Shown: piece after piece, positions 52,261-53,180 of the stretch
Layout: the number at the start of each line of letters is the position of its first letter
How positions within the stretch are numbered: the first letter of the stretch is position 1
Origin: Escherichia coli
Lineage (GTDB): Bacteria; Pseudomonadota; Gammaproteobacteria; Enterobacterales; Enterobacteriaceae
Strand: one strand, 5' to 3'
DNA length: 64,000 nucleotides
Assembly (NCBI RefSeq): GCF_044324875.1
Contig: NZ_CP172185.1
The notes under the pieces: generated by a model
What the model was told of the DNA's origin: nothing
What the model saw: the letters and a program-made list of their open reading frames with translations, nothing else
The model's database searches: none
Translations under genes and position numbers: made by a program

Positions 52261-52689
52261 ATATCTATTACTCTCCCGAGTGTAAAACTATCAAACCAAT
52301 GAGTAACCGATACAGCCTCGCAAATTCTTTCAGATAATTAACCCGTCACTGCGGCACGTTCTCTCATAAGGCGTGCCTGCTGTGTAATCCAGTATGGATC
52401 CAGCATAGTTGACGGCTTAATAGACTCAATTCCTTTCCCAGGTTACCAACAACGATATCTTGTATAACACCCCAGAAGATACGACATTATGATGAGATGA
52501 GGTATGCTCCTCAGCGCCAATCAACGCCAGGGCTGGGCCAGTTTTGAGATCAGACTCATTCCCGGACTGACTTCAGGCGACATATATCAATGACGTTGGG
52601 GCAATAAAAGATAGCCGATGTAATACATCTATTCAAATTTGTGATACATGTCAAAAAATTGGTTGACCAAACTCGTTATTTATATAAGG

Positions 52690-52714
52690 GCACTTACGAA
52701 GTGCACTCTTTTTT
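52690..52714 (+). terminator. short hairpin gcactt-acg-aagtgc followed by T6, immediately upstream of ykgR
   Basis: Seen in sequence. Confidence 0.4.
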
Positions 52715-52731
52715 AAAGCGAGGAAGTACCA

Positions 52732-52833
52732 ATGAAAGAGAATAAAGTACAACAAATCAGTCATAAACTGATTAATATCGTTGTTTTTGTCGCAATTGTA
52801 GAATACGCCTATTTATTTCTCCATTTCTATTAA
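52732..52833 (+). CDS. ykgR: small hydrophobic protein, 33 aa (MKENKVQQISHKLINIVVFVAIVEYAYLFLHFY), ykgR-like
   Basis: Own translation; GAGGAAG RBS 7 bp upstream; below the ORF-track size cutoff. Confidence 0.5.
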   Translation: MKENKVQQISHKLINIVVFVAIVEYAYLFLHFY

Positions 52834-53162
52834 TAACGGCAATAAACTGTTCACTTCAGTGATATTAAAAAATATGCATCCTCTCCCTTTTTTGTAAGTA
52901 ATTATTATATCCGTGGGAGAGGAATACACGCTGTCCGGCAATCAATCAAACTGCGATAAATCATCGGCCAGTAAAATGGAGATAGCCTCCATTCTCGAAA
53001 AATTCATACTCTCAGCGAAACCATCACTCATCAAGGCGTTTATGGGAGCGTCGCCAATGGCTGCTAACAATGCCAGACTTCCCCGTTGCCGAAATTCCAC
53101 ATACCACAAATGGTCACAGGGATTGGGTGTTGAAATGATCCGGATGAGCATGTATCTTTATG

Positions 53163-53180
53163 GTTATGTTATAACATAAC
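53163..53180 (+). promoter_or_regulatory. Zur box: perfect 18-bp palindrome GTTATGTTATAACATAAC upstream of ykgM
   Basis: Palindrome seen in sequence 12 bp upstream of ykgM start; ykgM-ykgO are known Zur-repressed paralogs. Confidence 0.75.

Follow-up and report, generated by a model that had tools for sequence, protein, structure and literature searches.

The leader hairpin of ompA mRNA, said to have been described by Emory, Bouvet and Belasco in 1992 as a 5'-terminal stabilising stem-loop, is among the closest known counterparts of the small hairpin located in front of the Escherichia coli gene ykgR. Similarly to the ompA element, the ykgR hairpin is small, would leave no more than about two unpaired bases at the 5' end of the message and is followed by a single-stranded A/U-rich segment and a Shine-Dalgarno sequence, whereas the ompA leader is much longer and contains a second hairpin, and the 5' end of ykgR mRNA is an inferred one. 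Another group suitable for comparison is represented by intrinsic terminators and attenuators of the trp and pyrBI type, with which the ykgR element shares a stem-loop, a U6 run within a few bases of it and the position between promoter and start codon. In contrast to them, it has a short stem of low stability, the U-run is preceded by four non-U bases, the leader is devoid of antiterminator, leader peptide or mapped 3' end, and the whole element probably falls within the first ~26 nt of the transcript. As for the encoded product, AzuC is a small E. coli protein whose synthesis responds to CRP, while AcrZ, MgtS and KdpF are small membrane modulators. YkgR resembles this set in having not more than 50 amino acids, a single hydrophobic helix and induction by growth phase or carbon source, and deviates from it in that its family is almost confined to Escherichia; unlike the members of this set, it has, to our knowledge, neither a known partner protein nor a phenotype. 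The discovery of YkgR is attributed to Hemm et al. (2008), in whose work YkgR tagged on the chromosome was reportedly detected; activation of ykgR by CRP is reportedly noted in the abstract of Hemm et al. (2010; J Bacteriol 192:46).

The ykgR locus was considered here within a window of 64 kb (the whole stretch of 64,000 nucleotides of E. coli DNA that was analysed and to which the coordinates refer). On balance we incline to the view that ykgR constitutes a monocistronic CRP-driven unit, in which the hairpin would represent the 5'-terminal stem-loop of the mRNA and might serve as its stabiliser. Features of the promoter, leader and coding sequence are as follows:

52616..52688, + strand: conserved promoter block, near-identical in E. 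coli and in the lineages designated L034/L066, L077 and L003
52637..52658, + strand: CRP-like site with core TGTGA-tacatg-TCAAA (core 52640-52655, centre 52647.5), one mismatch to TGTGAN6TCACA
52659-52670, + strand: palindrome TTGGTTGACCAA, downstream of the CRP-like site and upstream of the -10 candidates
52677-52686, + strand: AT-rich -10 candidates TATTTATATA, within the promoter block
52690..52704, + strand: 6-bp hairpin GCACUU-ACG-AAGUGC with a 3-nt loop, -6.2 kcal/mol
52705..52714, + strand: spacer ACTC and then T6 (52709-52714), with 52705 being A/G polymorphic
52720..52726, + strand: Shine-Dalgarno sequence GAGGAAG, 5 nt before ATG, kept in all lineages
52732..52833, + strand: ykgR CDS, 33 aa, RefSeq "small membrane protein YkgR", WP_000662258.1

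The identity of the 33-codon ORF is near certain: it is ykgR itself, b4671 of K-12. Its translation from ATG (52732) to TAA (52833) on the + strand is MKENKVQQISHKLINIVVFVAIVEYAYLFLHFY, the protein annotated under the above accession as ykgR, adjoining ykgM and ykgO, in records 100% identical to the window; YkgR of K-12 and BW25113 bears the same accession as well. With the NCBIfam equivalog model NF041474 it scored 78.1 bits against a curated cut-off of 40 bits, residues 1-33 covering positions 1-33 of 33, and the Pfam profile search with YkgR returned no match, yet the precomputed label PF28062:YkgR is attached to its relatives. Of 5,426 complete E. coli genomes, about 5,070 possess the gene; the surrounding segment 52260-53190 (931 bases) is 100% identical to many complete E. 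coli genomes, and at least 80% of it is carried by 5,016 of the 5,426. Being a gene that is both annotated and conserved, the ORF by far exceeds what chance would produce. The sequence-only reading, which had spoken of a "ykgR-like" ORF, was thereby borne out and even understated, since the protein is identical to annotated ykgR, and the traits it had listed (33-aa hydrophobic ORF, good RBS, single TM helix) are all present in the sequence. The gene call is right and already known: ykgR is a catalogued and experimentally studied gene for an inner-membrane small protein, and in this sense the finding is an ordinary one.

In K-12 MG1655, b4671 occupies positions 313141-313242 of the minus strand, and promoter, hairpin, leader and YkgR protein are all identical to those of the window. 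Downstream on the same strand ykgM and ykgO are found in both cases, the gene itself showing no difference. The upstream environment is dissimilar: window-identical records have an alpha/beta hydrolase gene and a gene of NADH-dependent flavin oxidoreductase (the OYE gene), so that the source strain possesses intact hydrolase and OYE-type genes, whereas all that survives there in K-12 is ykgP, a 90-nt oxidoreductase remnant. Pairing of the ykgR Shine-Dalgarno sequence with the anti-Shine-Dalgarno is predicted to yield -7.8 kcal/mol, the variant met in L003 being GAGGAAA. Several deviations of the coding sequence were encountered along the way. The T5 run at 52784-52788 inside ykgR is shortened to T4 in O157:H7 (L008, strain F6667), RefSeq calls the gene frameshifted in the O157:H7 records examined, and the same change truncates the product in one metagenome contig; such a frameshift makes ykgR seem dispensable in the O157:H7 lineage. 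A natural E3K allele (G52738A, GAG to AAG, WP_000739809.1) was encountered in APEC O2:K1, in B2/APEC strains and in a few metagenome contigs (3-4 of the 98 described below). Finally, the segment 52780-52900 (3' end of ykgR and downstream sequence) has a second partial match elsewhere in ~840 E. coli genomes, window-identical ones included, with no second copy within the window and a single copy in K-12.

Residues 13-31 of YkgR are hydrophobic (mean Kyte-Doolittle value of 2.0 over 19 residues) and follow a Lys-rich N-terminus; the membrane-spanning part is conserved, with mostly synonymous changes, and Glu24, located inside the helix, is invariant. Plasmid-expressed YkgR was detected and found to cross-link to SRP, which recognises it post-translationally (PMC7549839), and the intramembrane S2P protease RseP cleaves it both in vitro and in vivo, chromosomally encoded RseP included (PMC10470546). 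An N-terminus in the cytoplasm and a C-terminus in the periplasm are given in the part of PMC7558204 that cites Fontaine 2011, and stationary-phase induction of ykgR is stated in PMC10502375. By analogy with the small membrane proteins listed in the opening paragraph, YkgR would most likely act as a modulator of some larger membrane protein when carbon is limiting or in stationary phase. Its interpretation as a type I toxin was also considered and rejected, the protein being employed as a high-yield fusion tag (PMC7558204); scanning of the antisense strand gave one weak promoter-like match without antisense terminator, and Rfam antitoxin families had no match at the ykgR locus.

By all appearances in sequence collections, the YkgR family is very narrow and essentially confined to Escherichia. 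Exhaustive phmmer search with YkgR over 1.84 billion representatives returned 9 hits with identities of 66% or more, the majority of them frameshift or adapter artefacts, and the scan with a back-translated motif in one genome per species yielded only one chance hit and two very short contigs of contaminating E. coli DNA. These contigs (L005 and L007, 403 and 264 bp) show full identity to the K-12 ykgR locus and represent contamination by E. coli of assemblies assigned to Sulfoacidibacillus thermotolerans and Alkalicoccobacillus porphyridii. A motif variant excluding the E. coli codon found nothing in the metagenomes scanned. One more assembly, L004 (GCA_900603405.1), was left out on account of many homopolymer indels.

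Lineages sufficiently diverged for comparison are nevertheless available. L034/L066 have hydrolase and OYE genes upstream as in the window and different genes downstream; in L034 no difference from E. coli is seen over the 81 nt preceding ATG, and the CDS carries 6 changes, 4 of them synonymous. In L077 an OYE remnant is fused ~115 nt upstream of ykgR, the substitution C52704T turns the closing pair of the hairpin into G·U, and the spacer, having lost 2 nt, is reduced to AC with T6 kept. L003, which comes from a Logan assembly, probably belongs to another species, since its neighbouring genes share ~83% identity with those of E. coli; it has two stem substitutions, A52692G and A52700G, each of which creates a G·U pair, and its T-run is T5. 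Similarity between the lineages begins ~115-125 nt upstream of ATG whatever lies beyond, and therefore promoter, hairpin, Shine-Dalgarno sequence and ORF travel as one module. In the alignment of five sequences 30 of 30 cells of the hairpin are paired, three pairs showing one-sided change and none a double compensatory one, and for L003 and L077 pairing is kept only in RNA of the + strand, while the DNA palindrome is broken. The chance that three random stem substitutions all stay compatible with pairing is ~4% by a rough estimate, which suggests RNA-level constraint on the hairpin. Within E. coli the stem is invariant in 10 genomes spread over the identity range and conserved no more than its flanks. 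It is also almost invariant in 98 contigs returned by a metagenome scan with fixed flanks (TTGGTTGACCAA ... AGGAARTACCAATGAA) and the hairpin left free: the window allele is present in 67 of them, A52705G alone (just past the stem) in 24, and the remainder are singletons.

The promoter block preserved in these lineages contains a plausible site for CRP. The sequence TGTGAtacatgTCAAA (52640-52655) coincides with the CRP consensus in 9 of its 10 specified positions, and matches of such quality number 2 in the 64-kb window versus 1.9 expected, so the count as such is not above chance. Both half-sites are invariant in four lineages, variation being restricted to the N6 spacer, and the block as a whole stays near-identical despite the fact that sequences upstream of ~52606 are unrelated in L077 and L003. 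No canonical sigma-70 pair of -35 and -10 hexamers was detected in the block by the promoter scan, which fits an activator-dependent promoter; no hexamer of the -10 region combines A at position 2 with T at position 6, and TTGACC (52663-68), tried as a -35 element, was rejected, no -10 being found at 16-18 bp distance. At class II promoters CRP is centred at -41.5. The ykgR promoter is probably CRP-dependent, with the above candidate site, and if its arrangement is of class II, counting from the centre at 52647.5 would place +1 at ~52689 (52688-52690) and make the hairpin begin at +1 to +3. With the alternative -10 element TATATA (52681-86) the start would shift into the 5' arm, and the RNA would lack the hairpin. 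The 5-2-5 palindrome TTGGTTGACCAA is invariant in E. coli and in L003, the latter retrieved independently of this motif, and could be a second regulator site.

Relative to the OYE stop codon (52260) the hairpin starts 430 nt downstream, and 17 nt separate the last T of the T-run from the ATG of ykgR, so that the features noticed initially (hairpin with T6 ~420 bp past the OYE gene and just before the ORF) are confirmed. By itself their combination is no more than chance expectation. The fold has z = -2.0, with 12 of 200 shuffles folding as well; the terminator pattern scan gave 1 site in 1.7 kb versus 1.4 expected from shuffles; and among 267 T-run-adjacent hairpins, collected at all runs of five or more T in the 64-kb window, this one ranks 88th, 87 being better. 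Its score of d'Aubenton-Carafa type is ~-56, whereas terminators have values above 0. Folding of the region 52600-52716 produced no antiterminator competing for either arm, the ORF list contains no leader ORF with RBS upstream of ykgR, and the Rfam search gave nothing better than E = 0.57, none near the gathering score, that is, no known riboswitch.

Transcript ends provide an independent view on the limits of the ykgR unit. They were taken from the tables supplied with Adams et al. 2021 (PMC7815308), and their K-12 coordinates were mapped onto the window, adding two features to the above list:

~52340..52380, + strand: Rho-termination region, K-12 313613(-), window ~52361 (approximate mapping)
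52879..52923, + strand: 3' stem-loop, -19.4 kcal/mol, with the mapped 3' end 5 nt after it, at 52928

The curated Term-seq 3' end at K-12 313047(-), classed as "orphan" (PMC7815308, supplementary file 1), corresponds to window position 52928, 95 nt past the ykgR stop codon. Its score is 48,378 in the LB OD 0.4 tab and 59,236 in that of LB OD 2.0, and it is absent from the M63-glucose tab (PMC7815308); this loss in glucose fits catabolite control. The stem-loop in front of it, UCCUCUCCC-N27-GGGAGAGGA, begins 46 nt past the ykgR stop codon and is a pronounced one (z = -4.6, none of 200 shuffles as good). No U-tract follows, so the end at 52928 has the appearance of a ykgR mRNA 3' end that was processed or protected. 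Among curated Term-seq 3' ends of the three conditions none was found on the minus strand of K-12 in the range 3131xx-3137xx, which includes the leader hairpin at ~313258-313262 (PMC7815308), with the reservation that products of ~22-26 nt, expected if transcription starts at the hairpin base, would escape such libraries. The Rho-termination region has a Rho score of 4.3 with p = 6.8e-8 (PMC7815308, supplementary file 2), this score being built on 800-nt windows and hence having a low resolution of some hundreds of nt. It is situated ~330 nt upstream of the hairpin, in the 430-nt spacer separating the OYE gene (in K-12, the ykgP remnant) from ykgR, and read-in from upstream is therefore already dealt with there.

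Taken as a whole, the preferred scheme of a monocistronic CRP-driven unit assumes the following course of events. CRP-cAMP would switch on the ykgR promoter, giving a monocistronic mRNA of ~240 nt, from ~52689 to 52928. The hairpin at 52690-52704 would form its 5'-terminal stem-loop, at or near +1, and U6/AAAG would remain an unstructured, single-stranded A/U-rich spacer leading to the good Shine-Dalgarno sequence; the 33-codon ORF would come next, and the strong 3' stem-loop would end the message. According to the ompA-type principle, the hairpin might shield such a short mRNA against decay dependent on the 5' end and would not stop transcription. The parts of this scheme deserve different degrees of confidence. 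We regard it as somewhat more probable than not that the hairpin is part of the leader rather than an attenuator; its specific role as a stabiliser, suggested by likeness to ompA, is put forward only tentatively. What is added here to the known gene is a clearer picture of its transcription unit (CRP-like site, 5' hairpin, Shine-Dalgarno sequence, ORF and 3' stem-loop with a published 3' end), along with grounds to drop the attenuator reading, the near confinement of the family to Escherichia, the O157:H7 frameshift and the hint at a DUF1471 neighbour considered below. If the hairpin does act as a stabiliser or a switch, this would slightly extend current knowledge on expression of very short small-protein mRNAs.

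Since the element had been proposed to act as an attenuator, it is this alternative that has to be confronted with the data in the first place. It implies that transcripts from the ykgR promoter stop at the hairpin with U6 unless some signal permits read-through, and it can refer to the fact that hairpin and T-run meet a loose terminator pattern, that the T-run is kept at T5-T6 in all lineages, that the 2-nt deletion in L077 brings it nearer to the stem, as does the alternative GCGC/GCGC register in L003, and that products of ~25 nt are invisible to Term-seq. The rest of the evidence speaks against the proposal: the stem is weak (-6.2 kcal/mol, 6 bp with only 3 G-C pairs), because of ACUC between stem and U6 the hybrid contains two rC:dG pairs in its upstream portion, the element scores below zero as a terminator and ranks 88th of 267, there is no alternative fold, antiterminator, leader ORF or peptide, or known riboswitch, and no Term-seq 3' end is recorded at the hairpin or T-run. 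Furthermore, with the CRP-like site and the -10-like region just upstream, the hairpin would fall at about +1 to +16 and the element as a whole at ~+1 to +26, where no sensor would fit; attenuation is thus not supported, and we consider it improbable. Termination of another kind, whereby hairpin and T-run would end transcripts of the hydrolase/OYE operon and leave ykgR under its own promoter only, draws on the absence of other terminator-like sites between the OYE stop codon and ykgR and on the codirectional orientation of upstream genes in E. coli, L034 and L003. Such an insulator would occupy an odd position downstream of the ykgR promoter elements, it is weak as a hairpin, the Rho-termination region (~52361) already precedes it by ~330 nt, and long transcripts arriving from upstream would have been detectable by Term-seq, which registers no 3' end at the site; we attach hardly any credence to this option.

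Two further interpretations dispense with termination. Control at the level of translation may be imagined, since CUCUUUU (52706-12) can pair with GAAAGAG (52734-40), looping out the Shine-Dalgarno sequence and AUG in the manner of a fourU-like thermometer or an sRNA-responsive switch. The minimum free energy fold of the leader indeed has this 7-bp helix beside the hairpin (-12.4 kcal/mol in total, z from ~-2.1 to -2.3), and the helix is also found in L003, but the significance is marginal, the Shine-Dalgarno sequence itself is unpaired in the fold, the helix is shortened in L077, and the E3K allele of B2/APEC strains introduces a C·A mismatch in its middle (G52738A), all of which makes such regulation very improbable. 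The inverted repeat may also have no function in RNA at all, being either a chance product of an AT-rich promoter or a DNA operator for a dimeric regulator covering the transcription start. Comparable hairpins adjacent to T-runs are common in the window, the whole region is equally invariant within E. coli, and GCACTT-N3-AAGTGC is a perfect DNA palindrome in a place where repressors often bind. On the other side, changes in L003 and L077 break the palindrome in DNA while G·U pairing in RNA of the + strand is kept, which speaks against an operator and mildly against chance; the absence of RNA function is thereby unlikely, and a 5'-terminal leader stem-loop remains our preferred assignment.

The spacer between ykgR and ykgM contains two unannotated reading frames:

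52942-53151, - strand: unannotated ORF, 69 aa
52913-53179, + strand: unannotated ORF, 88 aa

Neither of them has a Pfam or NCBIfam match, so both are probably spurious. The promoter scan revealed TTGAAA-17-TATCTT within 53130-53180 as the ykgMO promoter, and this match corresponds to an entry for an RpoD constitutive promoter and H-NS (PMC3946193), so ykgMO has its own promoter, separate from that of ykgR. It overlaps the palindromic GTTATGTTATAACATAAC, which looks like a putative Zur box. The environment of ykgR is different in three diverged lineages, where the gene adjoins a small DUF1471 (YdgH/BhsA/McbA-family) gene and not ykgMO. This gene is convergent and located downstream, with an SDR oxidoreductase, in L034 (9960-11161) and L077 (1022-2203), and it is codirected and located upstream of ykgR in L003 (2432-2683). 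Such arrangements hint that the ancestral neighbour of ykgR might have been the DUF1471 gene rather than ykgMO. A more far-reaching construction, in which the very short leader would harbour a regulatory device (a promoter-proximal terminator or a translation gate setting the YkgR level after CRP activation) and YkgR would be tied to envelope-stress proteins of the DUF1471 (YdgH/BhsA) family, appears to us speculative and rather improbable. What hints at such a tie is the above neighbourhood together with a T>C suppressor of the detergent sensitivity caused by delta-ydgH, reported in the ykgM-ykgR spacer (PMC11705850). The position of this suppressor, BW25113 308,687, corresponds to ~52993-52999 of the window, ~65-70 nt beyond the 3' end of ykgR mRNA and ~200 nt upstream of ykgM, and together with the DUF1471 neighbourhood it makes a curious coincidence.
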